Virus record (IMG/VR): IMGVR_UViG_3300021139_000004
Reading direction: 5' to 3' (one strand)
Source: an uncultured virus (IMG/VR IMGVR_UViG_3300021139_000004)
Lineage: Duplodnaviria; Heunggongvirae; Uroviricota; Caudoviricetes
DNA: 20,000 bases
The notes below the pieces were generated by a model that was not told where the DNA came from, made no database searches, and saw only the letters and a list, made by a program, of their open reading frames with translations. Each line of letters opens with the position of its first letter. Within the stretch, counting starts at the first letter, position 1. This document shows positions 1 to 15,966 of the stretch, piece after piece. The translations under genes and the position numbers were made by a program.

Positions 1-1
1 A

Positions 2-169
2 CAACATACTCGTGTTGTTCGTAATGTTGATACTGTTAATGACGTGTTTGATTTGTTTGAACACAATTATCCAGAATATCGCATCTATCGTATTATGGAA
101 ATGGATACAACCATATGGTATGGTCAACCAACTCCTAGTGATCCAAGAATAGAATATATTGGTGCATGA
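2..169 (+). CDS. 3' part of a hypothetical protein (truncated by the window edge); stop codon lies inside tRNA-Cys
   Basis: Frame open from base 2: QHTRVVRNVDTVNDVFDLFEHNYPEYRIYRIMEMDTTIWYGQPTPSDPRIEYIGA*, with TGA at 167-169. Confidence 0.6.
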   Translation, partial: QHTRVVRNVDTVNDVFDLFEHNYPEYRIYRIMEMDTTIWYGQPTPSDPRIEYIGA

Positions 170-235
170 GTCAGATGGTAAGTCGCAGGTCTGCAAAACC
201 TTGAGAACCCAGTTCGATTCTGGGATGCACCTCCA
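161..235 (+). tRNA. tRNA-Cys(GCA)
   Basis: Acceptor GGTGCAT/ATGCACC, U73, CCA; anticodon loop CT-GCA-AA; T arm CCCAG-TTCGATT-CTGGG. D stem is weak and position 8 is G. Confidence 0.9.
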
Positions 236-241
236 AAGCTC

Positions 242-347
242 GAGATGATGGTAGATACCGTGGACCACTGTTATTAGTGCACGACCTGTCAGGGGCGTGG
301 TTCCGGTCACAATTCTATCTCATTTGCGCCCAATATCTGTGCGGGTG
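242..347 (+). ncRNA. candidate structured RNA between tRNA-Cys and tRNA-Gly
   Basis: Nested helices found by eye: 243-255/314-325, 257-266/299-307, inner hairpins 267-278 and 280-299, and a further hairpin 327-347. No credible ORF. Confidence 0.4.
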
Positions 348-357
348 ATCAATTTTA

Positions 358-432
358 GCGGGTATAGCACAGCGGTAGTGCGTCACGTTGCCAACGTGAA
401 GGTCGTCGGTTCGATCCCGACTACCCGCTCCA
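358..432 (+). tRNA. tRNA-Gly(GCC)
   Basis: GCGGGTA/TACCCGC, U73, CCA; TCACG-TT GCC AA-CGTGA. Confidence 0.97.
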
Positions 433-509
433 GTTCCGATAGCTCAACTGAATAGAGCACTGGTCTACGAAACCAGAGGCTGAAGGTTTGAATCCTTCTC
501 GGAACACCA
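433..509 (+). tRNA. tRNA-Arg(ACG)
   Basis: GTTCCGA/TCGGAAC-A-CCA; CTGGT-CT ACG AA-ACCAG; T loop TTTGAAT. Abuts the previous CCA with no spacer. Confidence 0.92.
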
Positions 510-513
510 ATAT

Positions 514-588
514 TCGGATGTAGCTCAGTGGTAGAGCTTCTGCCTTCCAAGCAGAATGTCGTGGGTTCGACCCCCATCGTCCGCTCCA
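514..588 (+). tRNA. tRNA-Gly(TCC) with a U1:C72 mismatch
   Basis: TCGGATG/CGTCCGC-T-CCA; TCTGC-CT TCC AA-GCAGA. Confidence 0.9.
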
Positions 589-593
589 ATAAT

Positions 594-670
594 GCCCGAG
601 TAGTCCAATTGGCAGAGGCGTCCGCCTTAGAAGCGGAATGTTGGGGGTTCAAATCCCTCCTCGGGCACCA
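594..670 (+). tRNA. tRNA-Leu(TAG) with a short variable loop
   Basis: GCCCGAG/CTCGGGC-A-CCA; TCCGC-CT TAG AA-GCGGA; 77 nt. Confidence 0.92.
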
Positions 671-671
671 T

Positions 672-747
672 GCTACCTTAGTGTAATTGGTAAGCACCCG
701 AGTTTGTGGTACTCGGAGTTCTAGTTCGAATCTAGGAGGTAGTACCA
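672..747 (+). tRNA. tRNA-His(GTG), alphaproteobacterial type
   Basis: GCTACCT/AGGTAGT-A-CCA; CGAGT-TT GTG GT-ACTCG; the base at -1 is T. Confidence 0.93.
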
Positions 748-753
748 AAGTTT

Positions 754-844
754 AGGAAGGCTGCAGAGACGGTGGTTCTGCGACAGACTGTAAATCTGTT
801 CCCTAAGGGTAACACTGGGGGTTCGAATCCCTCCCTTCCTACCA
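754..844 (+). tRNA. tRNA-Tyr(GTA)
   Basis: AGGAAGG/CCTTCCT-A-CCA; ACAGA-CT GTA AA-TCTGT; long variable arm CCC-TAA-GGG. Confidence 0.9.
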
Positions 845-848
845 ATTC

Positions 849-924
849 GCCGATGTAGCTCAGCGGTAGAGCGAATCGCCTCATACGCGACAGGTCGCTG
901 GTTCAAATCCAGCTTTCGGCACCA
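849..924 (+). tRNA. tRNA-CAT (elongator Met or Ile2; not initiator-like)
   Basis: GCCGATG/TTTCGGC-A-CCA; loop CT CAT AC; G1-C72 is paired and the anticodon stem has no GGG/CCC. Confidence 0.88.
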
Positions 925-960
925 TTGATGAACCACAAGACACAAAAATACTGAAAGGGA

Positions 961-1086
961 ATTGGTTACCTGAGTAGAGTATCTGGAAGACTTGTGCCTT
1001 CGGGTTTGATCTAACCAGTCAAGTTCGTACGTCGAAGGGCGCTGTAGTCGAGCAGCAGGCAAGGTGTGGAGAACACCATCGACAAC
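961..1086 (+). ncRNA. candidate structured RNA between tRNA-CAT and tRNA-Pro
   Basis: Long imperfect hairpin closed by ATTGGTTA/TAACCAGT (961-1019), then a possible pseudoknot carrying a GGTGT-GGAGA-ACACC hairpin. Confidence 0.45.
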
Positions 1087-1092
1087 TATTAT

Positions 1093-1169
1093 CGGAGATT
1101 AGCGCAGTCTGGTAGCGCATCTGCTTTGGGAGCAGAGGGTCGCAAGTTCGAATCTTGCATCTCCGACCA
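1093..1169 (+). tRNA. tRNA-Pro(TGG)
   Basis: CGGAGAT/ATCTCCG-A-CCA; TCTGC-TT TGG GA-GCAGA. Confidence 0.97.
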
Positions 1170-1183
1170 TCATAGGAGTATGC

Positions 1184-1300
1184 ATGAAATGGTACGATAA
1201 ATATACTATGATCATCGATAATATCAACAAGTTGATATGGCTATCTTTGATGATTCACTGGATTTTGACTGATATTAAATTAACGGATCTTGTAAAGTAG
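1184..1300 (+). CDS. small hypothetical protein, 38 aa, hydrophobic core
   Basis: AGGAG 5 nt upstream of ATG; MKWYDKYTMIIDNINKLIWLSLMIHWILTDIKLTDLVK*; fills the gap between tRNA-Pro and the next CDS. Confidence 0.6.
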   Translation: MKWYDKYTMIIDNINKLIWLSLMIHWILTDIKLTDLVK

Positions 1301-1303
1301 AAC

Positions 1304-2059
1304 ATGAAAAAAATAGCGCTCTTTATGAATCATCCACAGTGTTCAAGACAATGTTGTAGTGGTATAATAAAGTCGTTATCTTCTAATTACACTTTCAAAA
1401 TCTTCACTAAAGAATCTAATATAATCGAAGTATTAAACAACGCTGATGCTGTCTTTTTTCCGGGCGGCATCGGCGATGCTGATTCTTACGACAAGTTTTT
1501 TCGTAGAAAAGCCGGTAATGCTGTAGCAGACTTTGTTCAAAATGGTGGAAAATATATTGGTGTCTGCATGGGTGCTTATTGGGCAGGTTCTAGATATTTC
1601 GATATCTTACAAGATGTAGATGCAGTACAATATATCAAACGTCCTGATGCAGACATTCGTAGATCTTATGGTACAGTTGCAAACGTAATTTGGCAAAACA
1701 AATGGAAAAAAATGTTTTTCTATGATGGTTGTGCTTTGATTGGTGATCAATCAAAGTTTACGACCTACGCTCGTTATGTCAATGGTGATCCGATGGCTAT
1801 CATTCAAGACAATATCGGTATCATTGGTTGCCATCCTGAAAGTCAAGAGTTCTGGTATGATAAACCATACGAGTATATCAAACAGCATTGGCACAAGGGT
1901 GAACATAATAAACTTTTGTTACGATTTGTAAACGATTTGATGGTGCCTTCGTCTAGCGGTTTAGGACATCGCCCTTTCACGGCGAAGATCACGGGTTCGA
2001 ATCCCGTAGGCACTGCCATAATGGAGAGTGGGCAGGATGGTAATGCAGCGGTTTGCTAA
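1304..2059 (+). CDS. BPL_N-like / class I glutamine amidotransferase-like protein; frame runs through tRNA-Glu into tRNA-Ser
   Basis: Motifs FPGG, GGKYIGVCMGAY (nucleophile elbow) and GCHPE (His-x-Glu). The protein-like part ends near base 1940; the rest is translated tRNA. Confidence 0.8.
   Translation: MKKIALFMNHPQCSRQCCSGIIKSLSSNYTFKIFTKESNIIEVLNNADAVFFPGGIGDADSYDKFFRRKAGNAVADFVQNGGKYIGVCMGAYWAGSRYFDILQDVDAVQYIKRPDADIRRSYGTVANVIWQNKWKKMFFYDGCALIGDQSKFTTYARYVNGDPMAIIQDNIGIIGCHPESQEFWYDKPYEYIKQHWHKGEHNKLLLRFVNDLMVPSSSGLGHRPFTAKITGSNPVGTAIMESGQDGNAAVC
1942..2018 (+). tRNA. tRNA-Glu(TTC)
   Basis: GGTGCCT/AGGCACT-G-CCA; TCGCC-CT TTC AC-GGCGA. Confidence 0.95.
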
Positions 2060-2108
2060 ACCGTACAACCGCAAGGTTGAATTGGTTCGATTCCAATACT
2101 CTCCGCCA
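2023..2108 (+). tRNA. tRNA-Ser(GCT)
   Basis: GGAGAGT/ACTCTCC-G-CCA; loop TT GCT AA; variable arm CAACC-GCAA-GGTTG. Confidence 0.93.
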
Positions 2109-2111
2109 TAT

Positions 2112-2185
2112 ATCGGTGTCGTATAATGGTAGTACAAGGGTCTCCAAAACCTTTAGCGTGGGTTCGATTCCTACCACCGGTGCCA
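2112..2185 (+). tRNA. tRNA-Trp(CCA)
   Basis: ATCGGTG/CACCGGT-G-CCA; AGGGT-CT CCA AA-ACCTT. Confidence 0.95.
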
Positions 2186-2202
2186 ATTTAAATGGGTGTT
2201 GA

Positions 2203-3402
2203 ATGAAAATAGGTATTATTGGTGCAGGAACTGCTAGTGCAGTTTCTCTTATTTCGATGTTACACGTATTTCGTGAAAGACGATTTAACGATTATGAGAT
2301 AGTCTGTATTGCAGATCCTAAAATTCCTATCACACACGTAGGTGAAAGTTTAAGTTCTTTGATCTTGCTTAAGATGATCGATGTATTAGATTTTGATCTC
2401 GTCGATGATCTGATCGAAATTGATGGAACTCTTAGAATTCAAAGTAGAGCTTTTTGGGAACGCGCTAACGGACACGACTTTAAAGTCAAATATGGTTTAC
2501 CGGGTTTACACGTCAATAGTGAAAAGTTCAGCAAGTTTGTAATCGATAGGATATTAAAACTCTATCCTAACGTGTCTATCGTTTATGACAACGTAGAAAA
2601 AATAATTGATACAGATGACGGCGCTACTCTATTTCTCAGTGATAATAAGAGTGTCGATTTTACTTTTGTCATCAATTGTACTGGTACTCCAACCGCAGAA
2701 GAACTCGCTAAAGATTACGAAGTTCCGGAATTCATTTCTGTCAACGCTGCGATCTTATATCCTGACTTCAAAAAGTACGACGAGATGTTTACATCGTCTT
2801 ACGTACACGACAATGGTTGGATGTTTGGTGTACCTCTTCAACACAGAAAAGCTTTTGGTTACTGCTATAACAATAATATAACTTCGAAAGAAGAAGCGAT
2901 CAAAGATTTTTCAGAGATCAAAAACATAGACGCTTCTACATGCAGAAGTTTTGAATGGTCACAATACTATCGTAAAAAAATAATCGAGCGCAGTGTACTT
3001 TATCTTGGAAATAAATTATATTTTCTAGAACCTCAGCAGGGTTTGCCCTTACATTTTTATGGAATGATGATCACTGCATTTACCAATGAATTGTTTATGC
3101 CTAAAGATATAAACACTATTAGAGATGAGTTTAATAGATACTACAGGTTCAACATAGAAAACGTACAAGACTTGATCGCTCTTAATTATTCAGGTGAATG
3201 TAATATCGATTCTAAGTTTTGGAACTATGTAAAAGAACCCGCTAGACAGAGACTGAAAAACTCTGAAGTGTTTCAAAATTGGCTATCTACTTGTGAAAAA
3301 GAAAACAAGCTTATACCCTTTTGGTTCTTTGATGAAAAGATGATTAAAGCTTATATTGAAGGGTATAAGATTGATTTGGGAGAATTAAGATGCAGTTCAT
3401 GA
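2203..3402 (+). CDS. tryptophan halogenase-like flavoprotein
   Basis: N-terminal IGIIGAGTAS dinucleotide motif, PKIPITHVGES, VINCTG, NGWMFGVPLQHR (WxWxIP-like), GNKLYFLEP, DSKFW. Confidence 0.8.
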   Translation: MKIGIIGAGTASAVSLISMLHVFRERRFNDYEIVCIADPKIPITHVGESLSSLILLKMIDVLDFDLVDDLIEIDGTLRIQSRAFWERANGHDFKVKYGLPGLHVNSEKFSKFVIDRILKLYPNVSIVYDNVEKIIDTDDGATLFLSDNKSVDFTFVINCTGTPTAEELAKDYEVPEFISVNAAILYPDFKKYDEMFTSSYVHDNGWMFGVPLQHRKAFGYCYNNNITSKEEAIKDFSEIKNIDASTCRSFEWSQYYRKKIIERSVLYLGNKLYFLEPQQGLPLHFYGMMITAFTNELFMPKDINTIRDEFNRYYRFNIENVQDLIALNYSGECNIDSKFWNYVKEPARQRLKNSEVFQNWLSTCEKENKLIPFWFFDEKMIKAYIEGYKIDLGELRCSS

Positions 3403-3968
3403 ATTTGTGGGCAACACCCGTAGCTTTATTTCAACATCCAGATTATGAATCTATCAATGCAGAGATCATGCAACACGAAGAGCTAAGAGGGTGTAACTTC
3501 TTAGCTAAGAAAGATGTTTGGGATTACGTAGATCAAGTTCCAGCTCTTCGTACTCTGTATGACTGGATGCTAGATTGCACAGCGAAATACGCCGAACAAT
3601 GTTTTGATTTAGAATATGATCCATCATTCTTTATGCACGGTCATGGTTCAATCAACTACAGAGGCAAGGGTAACGAAGCGATGATGCACACACATCGCTT
3701 GACTACAGTCGTCATGACATACTACGTGAGTGTTCATGATAACTGCGGCGACATTCGCCTCTTAGATCCTCGCAGCACACTGGGATGGATAAGTAAGAAT
3801 GTAGCTAAACCCTACAATCAGTATACACACAGTCCTCAAAATGGACAGCTTATCATGTTTCCCGGTTGGGTAATGCACATGGTAGCTCAGAATCAAACTG
3901 ACAAAGAAAGAGTCGCTTTGACTTCCAATGTGTATCTGAAAGAAGAGTTTAAAGATAAGGTGTATTGA
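3390..3968 (+). CDS. putative 2OG-Fe(II) oxygenase (TIGR02466-like)
   Basis: HTH...TYYV...GDIRLLDPR...GQLIMFPGWVMHMV...ERVALTSN. Confidence 0.85.
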   Translation: MQFMNLWATPVALFQHPDYESINAEIMQHEELRGCNFLAKKDVWDYVDQVPALRTLYDWMLDCTAKYAEQCFDLEYDPSFFMHGHGSINYRGKGNEAMMHTHRLTTVVMTYYVSVHDNCGDIRLLDPRSTLGWISKNVAKPYNQYTHSPQNGQLIMFPGWVMHMVAQNQTDKERVALTSNVYLKEEFKDKVY

Positions 3969-3970
3969 TC

Positions 3971-4438
3971 ATGAAAAAGTTTATTGTGTTAGACGATGTA
4001 CTAGACGAAGAAACAAGAATCGCTGTTCGTGATTTTAGTTATGGACCAGCACTACCGCAGAAGTGGTATGATTATGGCGTAAGCCCAATTCATGAAAAGA
4101 TCATCGACGTAGCACGAGATTATTTCGATCTCAGTGATACGATTGGTTATGAGATGTGGTGTAATCAGCGTGCAGTTGGTTGGCACTACGATCATGACGA
4201 AGTAAAGTCAAAAGAAAATAATACGTTCGTGTTTCCTCCTGTAGCTATCGCTTACTATGCTGAAGTAGCTAATCTTGAAGGCGGAGACTTCGTATCAGAA
4301 ACTCATCGCATAACACCGATTACGAATCGTATCATTATGTTTTCACCCGGTCTTTATCACGGCGTGTATCCATATTCAGGTATTCGTAAAGCGATCAGTA
4401 TCAATCCTTGGTCGTACAAGATTGAAAACAAGATTTAG
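3971..4438 (+). CDS. 2OG-Fe(II) oxygenase family protein; the last base of its TAG stop is G1 of tRNA-Gly
   Basis: WHYD (HxD), LEGG, NRIIMFSPGLYHGV, RKAISIN. ATG at 3971 preferred over TTG at 3965. Confidence 0.82.
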   Translation: MKKFIVLDDVLDEETRIAVRDFSYGPALPQKWYDYGVSPIHEKIIDVARDYFDLSDTIGYEMWCNQRAVGWHYDHDEVKSKENNTFVFPPVAIAYYAEVANLEGGDFVSETHRITPITNRIIMFSPGLYHGVYPYSGIRKAISINPWSYKIENKI

Positions 4439-4512
4439 CGGGTATAGCTCAGAGGTAGAGCTTCAGTTTTCCAAACTGACTGTCATCGGTTCGATCCCGA
4501 TTGCCCGCTCCA
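4438..4512 (+). tRNA. tRNA-Gly(TCC), second copy with canonical G1-C72
   Basis: GCGGGTA/TGCCCGC-T-CCA; TCAGT-TT TCC AA-ACTGA. Confidence 0.96.
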
Positions 4513-4523
4513 AAGGATAAATT

Positions 4524-5261
4524 ATGTTCACATTTTTTCATCGTAAAAAGAAAATTGTAGTCGATTGTCTGACTTGTCTTCCGGCAGCGTATGAATATAC
4601 GCCTATCGTTAGAGCATCTAAGACGATCCCGGACTGGTGGAAGAAGTTAGAACACGTAGGTCCTCTTAAAAAAGAAAACGGTGTCTATGACATCGAAAAT
4701 AACATGAAGAACTGTTACGGTTTTGTAGAGCTTTACAAAAGAGGTGCAGTCATTGAAAACTGGTGTGACATCTATCTGAATGTTTCACAAGAAGGTTATG
4801 AATACTACAAGAGTTATGGCATAGCACCCCAGCAGCATCGAAGAGAAGAATACAAGGGTGGATTTGAAAACTATCATCATATAAAGTTGATAAGCCCTTG
4901 GCACTTCAGAGAAAAGACTGGAATGCATTTTCTTTTCATGGGTGCAGAATGGGCAATCGAATATCCAGTAAAAGTTTTACCGGGTGTCGTACAGTATCGA
5001 GATAATTGCGGTACTCATATTAACATGATGTTACCAAAGTATCATGAATCGTATGATTTTACACTCAAATTGGGTCAACCTCTAGCGCATATCATTCCAT
5101 TAAATGATGATGTAAAGGTCGAGTTCAAAAATCATCTTCTTACTGAAGAAGAACTCAAAAAAGAAATGAGATTTGGTGGTCTTTCATTAGATGGTATGAG
5201 AGGCGTTACAGACATCGTAAAACGAAACAACGCACGTAAGTGTCCGTTCGGTTTTGGATAA
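4524..5261 (+). CDS. conserved phage hypothetical protein ending KCPFGFG (possibly DUF6065-like)
   Basis: 245-aa ORF with AAGGA SD; pattern P.WWK...MK.C.G...PW...LPGVV...G.PLAHIIP. The family call is tentative. Confidence 0.7.
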   Translation: MFTFFHRKKKIVVDCLTCLPAAYEYTPIVRASKTIPDWWKKLEHVGPLKKENGVYDIENNMKNCYGFVELYKRGAVIENWCDIYLNVSQEGYEYYKSYGIAPQQHRREEYKGGFENYHHIKLISPWHFREKTGMHFLFMGAEWAIEYPVKVLPGVVQYRDNCGTHINMMLPKYHESYDFTLKLGQPLAHIIPLNDDVKVEFKNHLLTEEELKKEMRFGGLSLDGMRGVTDIVKRNNARKCPFGFG

Positions 5262-5323
5262 ATAGAGCATGATCATTTCGTTATGTTTCTGATGATTGAA
5301 AAATCACCAATTCATAACGGAGT
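5257..5323 (+). promoter_or_regulatory. variant late promoter GATAAATA plus an SD-sequestering leader hairpin
   Basis: GATAAATA at 5257-5264; ATTTCGTTATG (5275-5285) pairs with CATAACGGAGT (5313-5323); inner hairpin TGATT-GAAA-AATCA. Confidence 0.5.
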
Positions 5324-5328
5324 CTCTA

Positions 5329-7158
5329 ATGAAAAGAATTTTAGTAGCCCTACTCGGGCTATGTGCATTCGCGCATGCTGCCGTTGCACAGAACTTACCG
5401 GCCGGTTCTCTAGGTGCGGTAACTAACAATACCCCAAACACATGGCAGACATATAGCTATACGTTTACACCATCATCTTCTGGTGCAAACTATATCGGAT
5501 TTGCATTTCGTCAAGATCCTGCATTCTGGACTTTCGATAACGTAACTTTGACTGCTTCTGGTTCGACTACAAATCTTTTAACGAACGGTGGATTTGATAC
5601 TGGTGGCCAGTTTAGTGTAACGACAAACAACGGTGTCAGTTCGATTCAGGCTCCAACAAACTGGGGTGTATGGTATCAAAACGGAACTTATCCTGCAGCC
5701 GCAGGTACTTGGACTGATATAGGCGGAACTCATGGAGGTGTATGGTATGATGGTGCTGTTGGAACATTTGATGGTATCTATCAGGGTGTGGTTCTACAAG
5801 CAGGAACGACTTACACAATATCTTTTCAAGTTTCTGGGAACAGTACTGCTAATAGTAGTTCTATTCAACTTGGCGTATATGGTGGCGCTTGCGCAACTGT
5901 AAGTATCGCTGCAACACAGTGTACGATTCCTGCAGCTGCTGGATTTACGACGCTTGCAACACCTGCTCAGGGTGCAGCAGCTGGTAATCCTAATCCTACT
6001 CCTACAGTAGTAAGCACAGCGCCCGGACCATCTACAGTTACACAGACGAGTGTAGCAGGAACGACTACTACTTCTGTTTCTAGCACACGCGGTGTATCTA
6101 CAACAGTAGTAGCTATATCAAACGCTGCTGCTAGATCGACAAACAACATCAACGTAACAAGAACTACTGTGACTACAGTTACTACTCCCGTAACGACAGT
6201 CACTACACATACGACTCCTATCGTCGTCTCGACTACAACAGTTCCAACGACAGTGACTACATGGAGTGATAATTCTACGACTACTACTAACGGCACACCA
6301 ATCGTAACTACTAATACGACAAATCAAGTAGTTGCATCTACTTCTGTGACTAACGATGTACAGTCAAGTACTGGTACTCAGTCACAATCAGTAAGTTCAA
6401 GTGGTGCACAAAACGCAGTCAAGTATCGTAACAACAATCCATTCATCGTCGATGTATTGAGTCAAAAAGATGGAACATGGATTAGTCCTACAGCTAGCTA
6501 CTACAAGACAGTAGGAAGTATGGCTGCTGGTGGCGTATCACTCGGTTATCAGTGGACAGTCGAAAACAACTCGTTCGGTGTAGCGTTTGCTTACAACAAC
6601 GCTAAGAGTGGCGGATTAGTCGGTAGCGACGTGCAAGCATCAACGTATGACGGCAACGTCTATGCTTTAAGCAAGCAAGAAGATGTTTGGATCAAGGGCA
6701 CTGTAGGTTACGGCTACGGCGACTACACAACCAACACATCGATTCCGCTGTTCGCTCTCTATAATTCTGGTAAGATCAAACAGAAGACATATTATGCAGA
6801 TCTAACTTTGTATAGTGCTGCAGACTATGCAGGCTTTCGTCCACTCATCGGTGCAACAATCGTAAAATCTCAGATCGATTCTACTTCTGTCGGTACACCA
6901 CTCTTAGATACGACAAGCGGCGTATCATCGAGCACGACTGTAAATCCATATATCGGAGTCAGATATGACTTTACTGACAACGTGGGTATTGAAACAAGAG
7001 TGACACAGACAAAAGATTTCAAGACAGTCGGTGGTATACGAGCAGTTGCCAAGACTGAAATCTATGATGGTGTATTCTTGGATGCTGGAGTCGGATTTGA
7101 TAAGGGCAACGGTTACACAGCAGCTGCTGGTACCATAGGTCTTAAGATCGCTTTTTAG
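5329..7158 (+). CDS. autotransporter-like outer-membrane protein
   Basis: GGAG SD before ATG 5329; signal peptide MKRILVALLGLCAFAHAAVA; beta-rich domain with NLLTNGGFD (carbohydrate-binding-like); Thr/Val stalk; roughly 230-aa amphipathic beta C-terminus ending GLKIAF. Confidence 0.8.
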   Translation: MKRILVALLGLCAFAHAAVAQNLPAGSLGAVTNNTPNTWQTYSYTFTPSSSGANYIGFAFRQDPAFWTFDNVTLTASGSTTNLLTNGGFDTGGQFSVTTNNGVSSIQAPTNWGVWYQNGTYPAAAGTWTDIGGTHGGVWYDGAVGTFDGIYQGVVLQAGTTYTISFQVSGNSTANSSSIQLGVYGGACATVSIAATQCTIPAAAGFTTLATPAQGAAAGNPNPTPTVVSTAPGPSTVTQTSVAGTTTTSVSSTRGVSTTVVAISNAAARSTNNINVTRTTVTTVTTPVTTVTTHTTPIVVSTTTVPTTVTTWSDNSTTTTNGTPIVTTNTTNQVVASTSVTNDVQSSTGTQSQSVSSSGAQNAVKYRNNNPFIVDVLSQKDGTWISPTASYYKTVGSMAAGGVSLGYQWTVENNSFGVAFAYNNAKSGGLVGSDVQASTYDGNVYALSKQEDVWIKGTVGYGYGDYTTNTSIPLFALYNSGKIKQKTYYADLTLYSAADYAGFRPLIGATIVKSQIDSTSVGTPLLDTTSGVSSSTTVNPYIGVRYDFTDNVGIETRVTQTKDFKTVGGIRAVAKTEIYDGVFLDAGVGFDKGNGYTAAAGTIGLKIAF

Positions 7159-7206
7159 TGTACAAACTCTCTCCATCGTGGTATAATCTTTACATGATGG
7201 AGAGAG
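7158..7206 (+). promoter_or_regulatory. T4-type early promoter inside a stem-loop
   Basis: TGTACA (7159-7164)-17 nt-TATAAT (7182-7187); 14-bp stem 7167-7180/7193-7206. Confidence 0.75.
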
Positions 7207-7208
7207 AA

Positions 7209-7436
7209 ATGCAAGTTATTCAGTTTCCCCTACAACAGCGTAACGCTACTATCGTCAACGGTGTGGCTACTCAGAATCCGCATAATCGTGCCAAGTATCT
7301 CAATCTGATCGAACGATTCTTGCTTCCTGATGACTATCAGGAAATCTTGAACGCTATCGAACATCCATTACTCTATGCTGCTTTGGAGCCTCAACTCCAG
7401 AGGATCTTAGACTATTACCTCAGTTACGATCAGTGA
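7209..7436 (+). CDS. hypothetical protein
   Basis: GGAGAGAG SD then MQVIQFPLQQRN...; start moved from the track's GTG, which lies in the promoter. Confidence 0.7.
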   Translation: MQVIQFPLQQRNATIVNGVATQNPHNRAKYLNLIERFLLPDDYQEILNAIEHPLLYAALEPQLQRILDYYLSYDQ

Positions 7437-7439
7437 TCG

Positions 7440-7447
7440 TATAAATA
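7440..7447 (+). promoter_or_regulatory. T4 late promoter
   Basis: Exact TATAAATA, intergenic, 24 nt before the ArfA-like ATG. Confidence 0.75.
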
Positions 7448-7471
7448 ATCTTACTTTAACAAAGGTGCGCT

Positions 7472-7600
7472 ATGACTAAGCAGGTTACAATTCGTAATCC
7501 AATCGCTAAGGCTCTTCAGAGCCAGTCTTTCCGCGCGCGTATCGTTGCCCCTAAACGTGGCAAGGGTTCATACAAACGTCAGAGCTTCAAAAAGTTCTGA
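7472..7600 (+). CDS. arfA: ArfA-like alternative ribosome rescue factor, 42 aa
   Basis: MTKQVTIRNPIAKALQSQSFRARIVAPKRGKGSYKRQSFKKF*, with an AAGGT SD. Matches the ArfA pattern N.I...L....FR.R....K.GKGSY.R. Confidence 0.75.
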   Translation: MTKQVTIRNPIAKALQSQSFRARIVAPKRGKGSYKRQSFKKF

Positions 7601-7607
7601 GGTTATT

Positions 7608-7684
7608 GGATCCTTAGCTCAGTAGGTTAGAGCAGCGGTCTTTTAAACCGCAGGTCCTGGGTTCGAATCCCAGAGGATCTACCA
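7608..7684 (+). tRNA. tRNA-Lys(TTT)
   Basis: GGATCCT/AGGATCT-A-CCA; GCGGT-CT TTT AA-ACCGC. Confidence 0.97.
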
Positions 7685-7830: not shown

Positions 7831-8388
7831 ATGCAAAAGACTATCGTATCGGCGCTCGCTCTTCTTGCGTCGACAGCAGTGGCTTCGGCTACTGATCTGC
7901 CAAGCAAGACGAAAGCACCTGCTGCACCAGTCGCTGCACAGTCTTCAACAGACTTCTATGCTGGCGTTAATGCAGGCGGTGACTTCGATAAAGCACGCGT
8001 CTATTCTGGTGGTGCTGTTGCTGGCTGGAACGTCCTTCCGTTCCTCGCAGTAGAAGGTACATACGACCTTGATCGTCCAAGCGACAAGATTAAGGGTGCT
8101 TCAAACTGGCAGAACACTGTCGGCGTGAACGCTGTACCACAGTACAAGATTCCCGGTCAAGACGTTACCGTGTATGCACTCGGTGGTGTTGGTTACCGTT
8201 GGAATAGTGTAGCTACCGTTGCGGATCATTCCGTTTATAACTTCGGTGCTGGCGCTAAGTATGAGTTCGCTAAGAATCTCGAACTCGACGGTCGTTATCG
8301 TCGCATCGACGCTATCGAAAGCAAGTATCGCACGACTGCAAATCCTGCAGAAGACCGTGCAACACTTGGTGTAAACTACAAGTTCTAA
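7831..8388 (+). CDS. outer-membrane beta-barrel protein, RopB/Omp25-like
   Basis: TAAGGAG SD; signal peptide then ATDLPSKTKAPAAPVA; FYAGVNAGG; GAGAKYEF; C-terminal GVNYKF. Confidence 0.85.
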   Translation: MQKTIVSALALLASTAVASATDLPSKTKAPAAPVAAQSSTDFYAGVNAGGDFDKARVYSGGAVAGWNVLPFLAVEGTYDLDRPSDKIKGASNWQNTVGVNAVPQYKIPGQDVTVYALGGVGYRWNSVATVADHSVYNFGAGAKYEFAKNLELDGRYRRIDAIESKYRTTANPAEDRATLGVNYKF

Positions 8389-10864: not shown

Positions 10865-10940
10865 TCGGGGATAGTTCAATTGGTAGAACAGCGGACTTTG
10901 AATCCGTTGGTTGGAGGTTCGAGCCCTTCTCCCCGAACCA
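10865..10940 (+). tRNA. tRNA-Gln(TTG)
   Basis: TCGGGGA/TCCCCGA-A-CCA; GCGGA-CT TTG AA-TCCGT. Confidence 0.95.
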
Positions 10941-11231
10941 TTATTCTTTCTTACTCTCTACAGTCTTTTTAGCATTATCTAAGAATGAATAGATCGAGTT
11001 GATATTCTTCTGACACACAGTATTATTTGTATGCATCTGAACTAGTAGCTTTGACACTTGTACGTCTGTCAAAGTATCTGGATTCGGAAAATGTCTTACG
11101 TTTGGACAATAGAACAAAGACTTATCTGGCATGATAACGACTTGATCTGTCTTAGTAAGAACTTGAGGCGGTAACGATTTAGCGCAGCCTGCTAGAGTGA
11201 GAGCTGCTAAAGAAGCAATAACTAATTTCAT
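10941..11231 (-). CDS. o-spanin (Rz1-like lipoprotein)
   Basis: Lipobox LAGC, Pro-rich, two further Cys; 4-nt overlap with the upstream TM/coiled-coil gene. Confidence 0.75.
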   Translation of the reverse strand: MKLVIASLAALTLAGCAKSLPPQVLTKTDQVVIMPDKSLFYCPNVRHFPNPDTLTDVQVSKLLVQMHTNNTVCQKNINSIYSFLDNAKKTVESKKE

Positions 11232-13419: not shown

Positions 13420-15966
13420 ATGCGTTTCTACACGAATGTCTATCTACGCGGAAATAAGATCTATACTCGTGGTTACCAAAACGGTAAGCGCTTTAAAGAA
13501 GAAGATCACTATCAGCCATACATCTTTGAATTCGTAGCCGGCCAGAGTTCTAAGTATAAGACTCTGAATGGTAGGGATGTCAAGCGCACAAACTTTCGTA
13601 GTATCAAAGATTGTCGCGACTACATCAAACAGATGGAGGGTGTAAAGGGTAAAGAACTATTTGGTCTTACACACTTTCAATATACGTACATCAACGATGA
13701 ATTTTCTGGTGATATAGAATACGATCCTTCACATATATCTGTAGTCAGCATCGATATCGAAACACCGACTGATCAGGGTTTTCCTGATCCTCAAGTCGCG
13801 AACGTTCCTATCAGCAATATCACGATTAGTAAGAACGGTAAGATCGTCGTTTTTGGTTGTGAGTACTATAAGACAAAAGCTGACAACGTCTATTACTTCA
13901 TGTGTAAAGACGAAGCTGAGATGCTTCAAAAGTTTCTTATGGTCTGGAACGATGATGACTGGTCACCCGACGTGTTGACTGGTTGGAACATCGACGGCTT
14001 CGACGTACCTTATCTGTACAATCGTATCAGCAAAGTTCTAAGCGAGAACGAGGCTCGTAAGCTGTCGCCTTGGCGTATGGTCGACGAGCGTGAGATCGTT
14101 CGTGGCAAGACTGGTGGTCAGAGCCTAAGCGATCGCACTGATAAGATCTATGAATTGGTTGGTATCTCTACTCTCGATTACATGCATCTGTATAAGAAGT
14201 TCTCGTTCACCAATCAAGAGAGCTATAAGCTAGATCATATCGCAAACGTGGTTCTTGGTGAGAACAAGTTGGACTATTCGGAGTTCAGTTCGCTCTATGA
14301 GTTCTATCAGAAAGACTATGAACGTTTCGTAGATTACAACATTCATGATACTGTTCTTGTCGAACGCCTAGAAGATAAGCTCGGTCTTATCAAGCAGGTA
14401 TTTGCTCTTGCTTACGATGCTAAAGTTAACTATAACGACGTTATGACGACTACTAAACCGTGGGATGTCATCATTCATAATTACTTGATGAATCAGAATA
14501 TCGTCGTTCCTTTCTTCAAACCGAGTCGAGAAGACTTTGATCTAGTCGGTGGCTATGTCAAAGAAGTTCAGACTGGTATGCATAAGTGGGTGGTGTCTTT
14601 TGACTTGAACTCACTCTATCCACATCTTATCATGCAGTACAACATCAGTCCTGAGACGTTCGTTGCTAGAACGACTGAAGGATTTCCGAGCATTGACGGA
14701 CTATTGACCGGCAAATATGACTTCAGCGCCCGGCATATTTCGCCCGATGATGGATTTTGCTGGGCGGCGAACGGATGCGCTTATAGAAAAGGAAAGCAGG
14801 GTTTCTTGCCAGCATTGATGGAAAAGATGTATGATGACCGTGTCATCTATAAAGAGATGATGCTCGAAGCTAAGAAGAGATACGAGAAGACGAAGTCTAA
14901 AGAAGACGAAAAGCTAATCGCTCGCTATCATAATCTTCAGCTAGCCAAAAAGATCCAGCTGAACTCAGCTTATGGCGCTCTTGGTAATCGATACTTCCGT
15001 TGGTTCTCTTTCGACAACGCTGAAGCCATCACTAAGTCTGGTCAGCTTTCGATTCGTTGGATCGAACGTAAGATGAACGAGTACATGAACAAGATCTGTA
15101 AGACTAATGGTGTAGATTACGTCGTAGCTTCCGATACAGATTCTATCTACGTAACGTTCAAGAATCTCATTCCAGATAACTGCGACGAAGTCGAAGCAGT
15201 CAAATTGATCGATAAGTTCTGTGAGACTAAGATCCAGTCTTATATCAATTCTTGTTATGATCAGCTCGCTGGCATGATGAATGCTTATCAGCAGAAGATG
15301 CAGATGAAGCGAGAGACTATTGCTAATAAGGGTATCTGGAAAGAAAAGAAGATGTATATCCTCAATGCTTGGAACATCGAGGGTGTGCAGTTTGATAAGC
15401 CTAAGTTGAAGATCTCGGGCATCGAAGCAGTTCGATCTTCTACTCCAAAGAAGTGTCGTGAAGCTATTAAGAATGCACTCGAAGTCTTGATGAATAAGAC
15501 TGAAACAGAGTTTCAAAAGTATATCGCTGACTTCAAAGTTCAGTTCATGGAGATGCCCTTCGAAGAAGTAGCGTTTCCTCGAGGCGTCAAGTTGTTTGGT
15601 TACAAGAGTGCAGCTAATGGTGGTGTATATAAGTTCGAGTACAAGCTCGATCAGAAATCATTGCCTATTCAGGTTCGCGGTGCTCTTCGATACAATGATA
15701 TGATCAAACGCATGGGACTCGAGAAGAAATACGATCTGATCAAAGAGGGCGATAAGATCAAGTTCGCTTATCTTATCACACCCAATCCAATAAGAGACAA
15801 TGTCATCGCAGCTCCTGAAATACTTCCAAAAGAGTTCAAGCTTGATACATACATAGATCGTAGTCTACAGTTCGAAAAGACTTTCTTAGATCCGCTCAAA
15901 GCTATCACTGAAGTCATTGGATGGAAAGTAGAAAAGACTGCGTCTCTTGAAAGTTACTTTTACTAA
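13420..15966 (+). CDS. 43: family B DNA polymerase, T4 gp43-like
   Basis: Exonuclease motifs DIET, GWNIDGFD, YNIHD; polymerase motifs SFDLNSLYP, KIQLNSAYG, DTDS; C-terminal clamp-binding SLESYF. Confidence 0.98.
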   Translation: MRFYTNVYLRGNKIYTRGYQNGKRFKEEDHYQPYIFEFVAGQSSKYKTLNGRDVKRTNFRSIKDCRDYIKQMEGVKGKELFGLTHFQYTYINDEFSGDIEYDPSHISVVSIDIETPTDQGFPDPQVANVPISNITISKNGKIVVFGCEYYKTKADNVYYFMCKDEAEMLQKFLMVWNDDDWSPDVLTGWNIDGFDVPYLYNRISKVLSENEARKLSPWRMVDEREIVRGKTGGQSLSDRTDKIYELVGISTLDYMHLYKKFSFTNQESYKLDHIANVVLGENKLDYSEFSSLYEFYQKDYERFVDYNIHDTVLVERLEDKLGLIKQVFALAYDAKVNYNDVMTTTKPWDVIIHNYLMNQNIVVPFFKPSREDFDLVGGYVKEVQTGMHKWVVSFDLNSLYPHLIMQYNISPETFVARTTEGFPSIDGLLTGKYDFSARHISPDDGFCWAANGCAYRKGKQGFLPALMEKMYDDRVIYKEMMLEAKKRYEKTKSKEDEKLIARYHNLQLAKKIQLNSAYGALGNRYFRWFSFDNAEAITKSGQLSIRWIERKMNEYMNKICKTNGVDYVVASDTDSIYVTFKNLIPDNCDEVEAVKLIDKFCETKIQSYINSCYDQLAGMMNAYQQKMQMKRETIANKGIWKEKKMYILNAWNIEGVQFDKPKLKISGIEAVRSSTPKKCREAIKNALEVLMNKTETEFQKYIADFKVQFMEMPFEEVAFPRGVKLFGYKSAANGGVYKFEYKLDQKSLPIQVRGALRYNDMIKRMGLEKKYDLIKEGDKIKFAYLITPNPIRDNVIAAPEILPKEFKLDTYIDRSLQFEKTFLDPLKAITEVIGWKVEKTASLESYFY

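Follow-up and report, generated by a model that had tools for sequence, protein, structure and literature searches.

Coding sequences that end inside tRNA genes and a small ArfA homologue in the tRNA island of an uncultured T4-like phage

We analyzed a 20,000-nucleotide stretch of DNA (the window) from an uncultured virus of the Caudoviricetes. It corresponds to bases 14034-34033 of the 34,232-bp IMG/VR virus record IMGVR_UViG_3300021139_000004, whose estimated completeness is about 20%. The record carries 26 tRNA genes, every one on the plus strand, and 15 of them are located inside the window according to ARAGORN. Here we describe three protein-coding sequences (CDSs) of the window that have no complete stop codon before the next tRNA gene begins, together with a nearby gene for a small homologue of the ribosome rescue factor ArfA. 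The original prediction, made from the sequence alone, had joined these features into one system, in which tRNA maturation makes the upstream messages stop-less and the phage ArfA could decide the fate of their proteins. The features that bear on this proposal are listed below.

1..169, plus strand: ORF1, 68 amino acids (aa), of which the 3' part is in the window; TGA at 167-169 inside tRNA-Cys
161..235, plus strand: tRNA-Cys(GCA), found by ARAGORN and by Rfam RF00005 (44.5 bits) with an identical 5' end
1304..2059, plus strand: BPL_N / class-I glutamine-amidotransferase-like gene (Pfam BPL_N, 40.5 bits, cut-off 24.2)
1942..2018, 2023..2108 and 2112..2185, plus strand: tRNA-Glu(UUC), tRNA-Ser(GCU) and tRNA-Trp, respectively (ARAGORN, Rfam)
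3971..4438, plus strand: 2OG-Fe(II)-oxygenase-like gene (2OG-like gene below), with a weak PF13640 match of 20.4 bits, under the cut-off of 27
4438..4512, plus strand: tRNA-Gly(UCC) (ARAGORN, Rfam)
7472..7600, plus strand: mini-ArfA gene (arfA), 42 aa, with a KGKGSY motif and its own TGA (PF03889)
7575..7604, plus strand: 12-bp hairpin at the 3' end of arfA (folding z = -4.96 for 7440-7607)
7608..7684, plus strand: tRNA-Lys(UUU), 7 nt past the arfA stop (ARAGORN, Rfam)

The 5' ends of the three tRNAs in question (161, 1942 and 4438) are placed identically by ARAGORN and by Rfam RF00005 (44.5, 64.8 and 66.4 bits, respectively; gathering score 29), and each of the three upstream CDSs terminates differently with respect to them. 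ORF1 starts at an ATG at contig position 13996, 37 nt before the window, with a Shine-Dalgarno sequence AAAGGA 8 nt upstream; it has no Pfam or PHROG family match, and its TGA at window positions 167-169 coincides with nucleotides 7-9 of tRNA-Cys. The frame of the amidotransferase-like gene stays open across the whole tRNA-Glu (1942-2018), and its first stop is the TAA at 2057-2059 in tRNA-Ser. The conserved part of this protein finishes at the Leu codon 1937-1939, and the junction reads ...TTG AT/G GTG CC..., where the slash marks the tRNA 5' end. The 2OG-like gene ends with ...ATT TA/G, so that its TAG at 4436-4438 takes the G from nucleotide 1 of tRNA-Gly. The claim that three CDSs lack a complete stop before the next tRNA is thus borne out, and at all three junctions the same-strand CDS stop is at or after tRNA nucleotide 1, as in the definition of overlap used for bacteria (PMC4131195). 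Such overlaps are very rare in bacteria, with 250 upstream same-strand CDS overlaps per 115,660 t(m)RNA genes (PMC4131195). On the phage contig, three of the five CDS-to-tRNA junctions overlap. The chance of at least 3 in 26 at the bacterial rate is about 3e-5, which agrees with the expectation that stop-in-tRNA overlaps exceed chance, the bacterial baseline being only a rough comparator, since the annotations behind it steer clear of overlapping genes.

Overlaps of this kind could be mimicked by frameshifts in the assembly, misplaced tRNA ends or ORFs called in error, and both the metagenome assembly source and the absence of a family for ORF1 speak for caution. However, two independent tRNA callers concur on the 5' ends, and all three junctions are bridged indel-free by contigs from other studies (X4 records 10, 1439-2088, and 14, 4396-4896; X7 records 20, 1183-2050, 22, 2121-4483, and 17, 1-237), with no indel listed at any of them. 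Homologous junctions are also present in several other contigs. Among the strain differences listed (111 more exist), 15 are located in the amidotransferase-like gene, and 11 of these 15 are synonymous, which points to purifying selection on this gene in exactly its open frame and to a functional product. An artefact is therefore largely refuted as the source of the overlaps, and we find it scarcely credible.

The junctions are conserved in relatives of the phage, although their exact stops vary. We examined homologues of the amidotransferase-like gene at 80 IMG/VR loci, 77 of which have no tRNA in the fetched stretch (two of these run off the contig). The 75 tRNA-free loci with their own stop end either 0-6 residues past a conserved FVxxL motif (68 loci) or after a 37-38-aa extension (7 loci). 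In contrast, a tRNA directly follows the gene in all five tRNA-cluster genomes (L015, L020, L035, G033 and the window), where it begins 0-2 nt past the last conserved Leu/Val codon. The depth of the stop in the tRNA at these five junctions is 14, 23, 14, 15 and 118 nt, respectively. The 2OG-like gene extends into tRNA-Gly(UCC) by 1 nt in the window, 21 nt in G002 and 15 nt in G033. Two more overlaps were found in G033, a 315-aa ORF that runs into tRNA-Gln and a 136-aa ORF that runs into tRNA-Leu, by 10 nt each.

ORF1 was identified at 14 IMG/VR loci with 84-99% amino acid identity, and its TGA occupies tRNA-Cys nucleotides 7-9 (+9) at all eight loci where ARAGORN finds an intact tRNA-Cys. At three loci (L299, L300 and L301, at about 1680-1740) tRNA-Cys has a D-arm deletion and is not called as a tRNA, and ORF1 ends one codon later at a TAA in the remnant. 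In G002, tRNA-Cys is lost save for its first ~21 nt, which still encode the last codons and the stop of ORF1. The DNA of this pair is nearly identical between window positions 1-235 and positions 1-130 of the G002 locus L087 (one change in the first 105 nt), while the flanking proteins are only ~63% identical, which suggests a small cassette that may be mobile or recently exchanged.

The stops found inside tRNAs often derive from conserved tRNA nucleotides, namely positions 8-10 (U8-A9-R10) or a D-loop TAG. As a background for the observed junctions, we calculated the distance to the end of the first in-frame stop in all 459 frames of 153 tRNAs from eight phage records. The first stop is found no more than 23 nt into the tRNA in 52% of these frames, the median distance being 10 nt in the best of the three frames, 23 nt in the middle one and 92 nt in the worst. 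Of the 12 observed junction states, 11 keep to this 23-nt limit (binomial p = 0.004; p = 0.004 also by Mann-Whitney), the exception being the amidotransferase-like gene of the window; after collapsing to seven origins, all seven keep to it (p = 0.01). ORFs of less than 80 aa other than ORF1 were left out of this test, as was the unverified +57 junction of G035, whose addition gives 11 of 13 (p = 0.015). Because the junctions are biased to early in-tRNA stops, translation of uncut precursors is indicated, and the pattern is suggestive of selection for a short read-in by ribosomes on such precursors.

In the window, neither promoter-like sites (27 versus 29.9 in shuffled sequences) nor terminator-like sites (11 versus 7.2) are more frequent than in shuffles. 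A lake metatranscriptome run (X20) contains eight matching pieces, two of which match it without a difference, at window positions 2069-2298 and 7254-7469; the other six are tRNA fragments of 90-95% likeness that continue into unlike sequence. The 2069-2298 piece reaches from the last part of tRNA-Ser across tRNA-Trp into the halogenase-like gene, which is what one would expect of an uncut precursor, although DNA carry-over may also explain it. All these pieces are contigs, in which RNA ends, strand and level are unreadable and uncovered parts are uninformative.

RNase P maturation of a tRNA from a co-transcript removes the stop codon of an overlapping upstream message. Each tRNA matured from a co-transcript would therefore leave the overlapping message stop-less; we infer both the co-transcription and the RNase P cutting at the sites in the window. 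Several known systems resemble this arrangement in part. In mitochondrial tRNA punctuation, tRNAs flank coding regions, their processing sets the mRNA ends, and polyadenylation completes the stops. The window is similar in that tRNAs directly flank CDSs, but only one of its junctions leaves TA (4436-4437). We rejected stop completion by polyadenylation, since adenylation would form no stop at the remaining ends in the window and its relatives (...AUU, ...UUGAU, ...UUAU and ...GUU). A single-gene parallel is secG of Escherichia coli, which, unlike the window genes, has its own stop codon upstream of leuU. The secG mRNA and leuU are transcribed together and parted by one cut of RNase P at tRNA +1, and the half-life of the mRNA is below 30 s once leuU is severed (Mohanty and Kushner, PMC2241853). 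Messages cut in this way may thus contribute little protein, which accords with the indicated translation of uncut precursors in the phage. In bacteria, the stop of a same-strand CDS inside a downstream tRNA has also been described, and the formation of stop-less mRNA through t(m)RNA maturation was already inferred there (PMC4131195). The present case differs from these bacterial overlaps in that it involves 3 of the 26 tRNAs of one phage contig, is clade-wide, and is found beside a phage arfA; the survey, as far as its available text goes, does not extend to phages.

The ArfA-like ORF of the original prediction proved to be a homologue of ArfA. Its product scores 30.7 bits against PF03889 (gathering score 25.5) over residues 12-38. 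A profile built from 22 mini-ArfA sequences (36-88 aa long, most of them about 40-55) has six distinct PDB matches, every one an ArfA, with a best E-value of 5.7e-8 and an alignment to E. coli residues 7-47. Residues K28, G30, G32 and R36 are invariant across the 22 sequences, and K31 and S33 are nearly so. Lysine and arginine make up 12 of the 42 residues, and the basic tail of ArfA has a role in the mRNA channel (PMC5378476). The phage protein thus shares family, KGKGSY motif and basic tail with the ArfA/RF2 rescue system (E. coli YhdL; PF03889; PDB 5MDV, 5U4I, 5H5U and others), while it differs in being only 42 aa long, phage-encoded, and adjacent in its gene to tRNA-Lys. The window encodes a real mini-ArfA, of the SAR11 type.

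Bacterial arfA is reportedly made from a stop-less mRNA, a result said to come from Schaub et al. in 2012. The stop is lost through an RNase III site or a terminator within the ORF, so that tmRNA represses the gene (PMC10107115). This feature is absent from the phage arfA, which has its own conserved TGA, located within a hairpin, and the putative RNase P site is 7 nt beyond it.

The arfA gene is syntenic in G002 and G033, with 83-86% identity (tblastn and alignment) compared to ~63% for neighbouring proteins, and its in-frame TGA is kept in both relatives as in the window. In the window, the stop codon is in the 3' arm of the hairpin, which ends 3 nt before tRNA-Lys. The distance from the arfA stop to tRNA-Lys(UUU) is 7 nt in the window, 6 nt in G002 and G033, and 9 nt in L102. 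The latter is a distant arfA (best-segment identity 58%) preceded by a consensus-like promoter of its own (TTGACA-N17-TATAAT); at its stop is a hairpin unlike that of the window in sequence, and tRNA-Lys(UUU) again follows. The pairing in this distant locus argues that arfA and tRNA-Lys(UUU) form a recurrent two-gene module.

A 3' hairpin as a general property of viral arfA genes was considered and rejected, as it is unenriched in 65 genes compared with 1,139 control stops (Mann-Whitney p = 0.80). One viral arfA-like gene (L124, about 6060-6120) has a strong hairpin and a U-run in frame about 15 nt before its stop, the arrangement that reportedly leaves bacterial arfA mRNAs without a stop. Longer ArfA-like ORFs, in which the N-terminal motif is followed by a K/G-rich C-terminal extension of 62-111 residues ending in ...GGGYK(D/N/S), were observed at 14 viral loci (L104, L108, L113, L115, L132, L133, L137-L140, L145, L151, L152 and L169).

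Relatives of the phage ArfA are present in at least 265 viral contigs of IMG/VR, and we inspected the neighbourhoods of the best 80 loci. A tRNA is located within 6 kb in 10 of these 80 and directly adjacent in three, always as tRNA-Lys(UUU). In cultured phages, ArfA-like matches were found in 8 records of 7 phages (E-values of 7e-4 to 0.7, the weakest being doubtful), with the hosts Caulobacter, Roseobacter, Erythrobacter, Citromicrobium and Pelagibacter, plus one Microcystis phage. Caulobacter phage Cr30 has an unannotated ArfA-like ORF (NC_025422 11148-11237; L090:6001-6090; E-value 1e-3) in a stretch left empty by the annotation; it is flanked by two RNA-ligase genes and has no tRNA in 12 kb, and the ArfA family has no match in a Caulobacter control genome. 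Two published cases are Citromicrobium phage RXM, with g10 annotated as ArfA and one tRNA (PMC8953757), and pelagiphage HTVC027P, whose gp30 is an ArfA-domain gene with early and late expression (PMC12753301). Both are ArfA genes in phages of Alphaproteobacteria that were read as general translation helpers. These accounts differ from the window in mentioning one tRNA (RXM) or none, and their available text draws no link to tRNA overlaps or tRNA-Lys. The phage ArfA literature that we covered, which did not extend to subscription journals, contains annotations only and no functional study linking ArfA and tRNA overlap.

The adjacency to tRNA-Lys(UUU) raises an alternative in which the overlaps are incidental and arfA with its tRNA forms a counter-defence module that restores translation after a host nuclease attack on tRNA-Lys or mRNAs. 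The phage tRNA would substitute for the cleaved one, and ArfA would free ribosomes stuck on broken messages. The conserved spacing of 6-9 nt down to the distant L102, with its own promoter and hairpin, the exclusive choice of tRNA-Lys(UUU) at the three tRNA-adjacent loci, and the position of the Cr30 ORF between RNA-ligase genes all fit this explanation. It also has a precedent in jumbo phages, where tRNAs, RNA repair and peptidyl-tRNA hydrolases were read as answers to attack on translation (PMC7824862). On the other hand, we identified neither an anticodon-nuclease target nor a repair gene in the window, the anticodon loop of tRNA-Lys looks ordinary by eye against the E. coli loop, and tRNA-Lys is missing from the surroundings of most of the best 80 viral arfA loci. 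We consider a counter-defence module unlikely, both as a whole and in the roles it assigns to the two genes.

The host of the phage is probably a SAR11-type freshwater alphaproteobacterium. A nucleotide-profile survey found arfA in none of 2,376 Alphaproteobacteria (PMC11633108, Table 1). Despite this report on the presumed host class, we found close relatives of the phage gene in Pelagibacterales. Among the best 80 of 154 cellular ArfA-like relatives, 55 belong to Pelagibacterales, 7 to other Alphaproteobacteria and 18 to Gammaproteobacteria, as retrieved with the pattern V[KAR]xK[KR]GKGSY, which biases the taxa that can turn up. Mini-ArfA genes of ~40 aa (...KPKKGKGSY.RKKFKKV; L210-L289, e.g. 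L216:3001-3108) occur in Pelagibacterales and also in some Rhodospirillales, and the C-termini are similar (...RKKFKKV in SAR11 and ...RQSFKKF in the phage). No tRNA or tmRNA was found within 500 nt of any of the 55 Pelagibacterales loci. These homologies suggest that the known taxonomic range of ArfA may be too narrow.

We also compared the distribution of ArfA with that of the overlaps. In the complete relative G008, neither Pfam nor our own family profile finds an ArfA, yet overlaps are present at 2 of its 8 CDS-tRNA junctions. In the complete relative G006, neither of two junctions overlaps; this genome has a divergent ArfA-like ORF without KGKGSY, located on the reverse strand (104672-104893), which keeps the N-terminal RN..AKDLRSPKYR.RVV and scores 31.6 bits against the family profile. 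Other ArfA-bearing loci with tRNAs overlap at one of four junctions. As a control, the cultured Aeromonas phages TSW001 and Aes508 have no overlap at three junctions, with gaps of 2-20 nt, a sample too small to be decisive; the GC-rich DSS3_MAL1 was left out of this control, as its raw ORFs conflict with the annotation. The co-occurrence of overlaps with arfA in relatives, which the original prediction would entail, is not significant, and we conclude that ArfA is mostly not tied to the overlaps.

Further rescue functions are encoded by the relatives of the phage. The complete genome G033 contains a two-piece tmRNA of the alphaproteobacterial type (L173:15208-15595; RF01849, 106.7 bits; RF04321, 107.8 bits), and permuted tmRNAs were found by ARAGORN in G006 (24378-24767, minus strand) and G008 (14967-15356). 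The predicted tags of all three end in ALAA. Phage tmRNAs are known from mycobacteriophages and Bacillus phage G (PMC4131195, Table 2). As in these and in DSS3_MAL1, a tmRNA is phage-encoded in the three relatives, which also have large tRNA sets; they differ in that their tmRNA is of the two-piece alphaproteobacterial type and that G033 carries tmRNA and ArfA together. No gene for SmpB or for an RF-1-domain protein was found in any of the three complete relatives, so host RF2 would be needed for ArfA. The lineage thus seems to invest in ribosome rescue while relying on the SmpB and RF2 of its host. Phage DSS3_MAL1 (L306; MN602268 4254-28378) has an island of 31 tRNAs in 24 kb with an annotated tmRNA (ssrA) and a peptidyl-tRNA hydrolase, and is another phage that joins tRNAs with ribosome-rescue functions.

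We lean toward genome compaction with tRNA-borne stops, accompanied by a general rescue helper, as the explanation of the locus. In the course of tight packing, several genes would have lost their own stops and come to end on triplets of the next tRNA, U8-A9-R10 or the D-loop TAG. CDS-CDS overlaps of 1-13 nt are frequent in the window, and the gaps at non-overlapping tRNA junctions are just 4-7 nt. The proteins would be made mainly from uncut mRNA-tRNA co-transcripts, and each presumed RNase P cut would leave a stop-less and probably short-lived upstream message. Ribosomes stalled on cut messages would be cleared by host rescue systems together with those of the phage, i.e. ArfA here, which presumably recruits host RF2, and tmRNA in the relatives. 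The phage ArfA would then most likely be a general rescue helper of the translation toolkit, for which tRNA-cut messages are only some of the substrates; this rescue activity is what we infer from its homology.

Some observations weigh against this explanation. The frame bias depends on a threshold picked after seeing the data and on junction states related by descent. The amidotransferase-like gene uses the sole frame of its tRNA that is open for 118 nt, which would add a 39-residue tail if the precursor is translated, and at least three strain variants retain this open-framed version, which fits a stop-less message better. Overlaps also affect a larger share of the junctions in the ArfA clade (8 of 13) than in G008 and G006 together (2 of 10; Fisher p = 0.09, the junctions being non-independent). 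Finally, in neighbourhoods of the 245-aa gene located upstream of arfA, tRNAs and ArfA are present together at all three close loci and both absent at all six distant ones; this pattern amounts to a single evolutionary event.

The alternative is a dedicated system, in which tRNA maturation punctuates the messages and the phage ArfA with host RF2 releases untagged proteins in competition with tmRNA tagging, thereby setting the protein yield. In its favour, RNase P must strip the stop from every matured co-transcript; a usable stop comes only 118 nt on in the amidotransferase-like gene, which is nevertheless under purifying selection; and the 0, 1 or 2 nt between the last conserved codon and tRNA +1 across relatives look as if the tail were irrelevant. 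ArfA is inside the island and syntenic in the clade, and with the ordinary ALAA-type tags of the relatives a choice between tagging and release is conceivable. Against such a system stand the frame bias toward early in-tRNA stops, the absence of a tRNA within 6 kb at 70 of the best 80 viral ArfA loci, the overlaps in the ArfA-less G008, the single overlap among four junctions at the other ArfA-bearing loci with tRNAs, and the fast decay of the cut mRNA in the E. coli precedent (PMC2241853). We regard it as distinctly improbable that a T4-like freshwater clade uses a bacterial-style tRNA punctuation for some auxiliary genes, with its own rescue factors choosing between release and tagging. The same doubt applies to the factors that would serve it, a mini-ArfA wired to tRNA-Lys(UUU) and the two-piece tmRNA of relatives, in a host class thought to be ArfA-less. 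Of the joint system originally predicted, the overlaps are real, ArfA is a true homologue and stop loss follows from RNase P biology, whereas the proposal that ArfA decides the fate of the proteins is unsupported. Simple genome compaction, which the same prediction had named as its alternative, fits better than a dedicated role.

If the cut messages are translated, the locus would be a natural viral case of tolerating or exploiting stop-less mRNAs for working proteins while bringing its own rescue factor. More generally, tRNA genes can serve as shared donors of stop codons in compact phage genomes, and CDSs of this kind will be cut short or overlooked by gene callers that bar overlap with tRNAs. 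Mini-ArfA is common in phages and SAR11, past the reported gamma- and betaproteobacterial range, and the arfA-tRNA-Lys(UUU) pair offers a small, cloneable module for studying how phages manage ribosome rescue.

Upstream of the tRNAs, the record encodes a gp45-type sliding clamp, the gp44/gp62 clamp loader and RegA (PF01818, 150 bits), and downstream of them are genes for a small heat-shock protein, an endolysin, a family-B DNA polymerase (phrog_262, E-value 7e-302), UvsX and a DnaB-like helicase. These flanking genes mark the phage as T4-like. The window represents a tRNA and auxiliary-gene island between regA and the DNA-polymerase gene of such a phage, with a genome of ~170 kb. The same island is present in the complete relative G033, which has 167,756 bp, terminal repeats and 32 tRNAs. 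The remaining features of the island are as follows.

358..924, plus strand: block of eight tRNAs, including Gly-GCC, Arg-ACG, Gly-UCC, Leu-UAG, His, Tyr and Met (ARAGORN, Rfam)
1093..1169, plus strand: tRNA-Pro(UGG) (ARAGORN, Rfam)
1184..1300, plus strand: 38-aa ORF directly 5' of the amidotransferase-like gene, in the same place in G001, G002 and G003 with 43-57% identity (tblastn)
2203..3402, plus strand: tryptophan-halogenase-like gene (PF04820, 109 bits; phrog_2928)
3390..3968, plus strand: 2OG-Fe(II) oxygenase gene (PF13759, 52.7 bits; phrog_81)
4524..7436, plus strand: three genes without an assigned role, encoding 245 aa (phrog_7084), 620 aa (no family found) and 92 aa
10510..10860, plus strand: 116-aa ORF that ends 4 nt 5' of tRNA-Gln(UUG) (10865..10940, plus strand), included as a comparison junction without overlap

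G002 and G033 have the 245-aa and 92-aa proteins at syntenic positions. The tRNA-Gln(UUG) gene is nearly free of spacers on both sides, as a minus-strand ORF (10941-11231) ends at the base directly after its 3' end. The 620-aa protein (5296-7158) begins like a signal peptide, is rich in Thr/Val in its middle and ends in what resembles beta-strands, and has the look of an outer-membrane protein. A second outer-membrane-like gene is located at 7831-8388 and encodes a 185-aa OMP_b-brl/OmpA-like barrel (PF13505, 52.7 bits).

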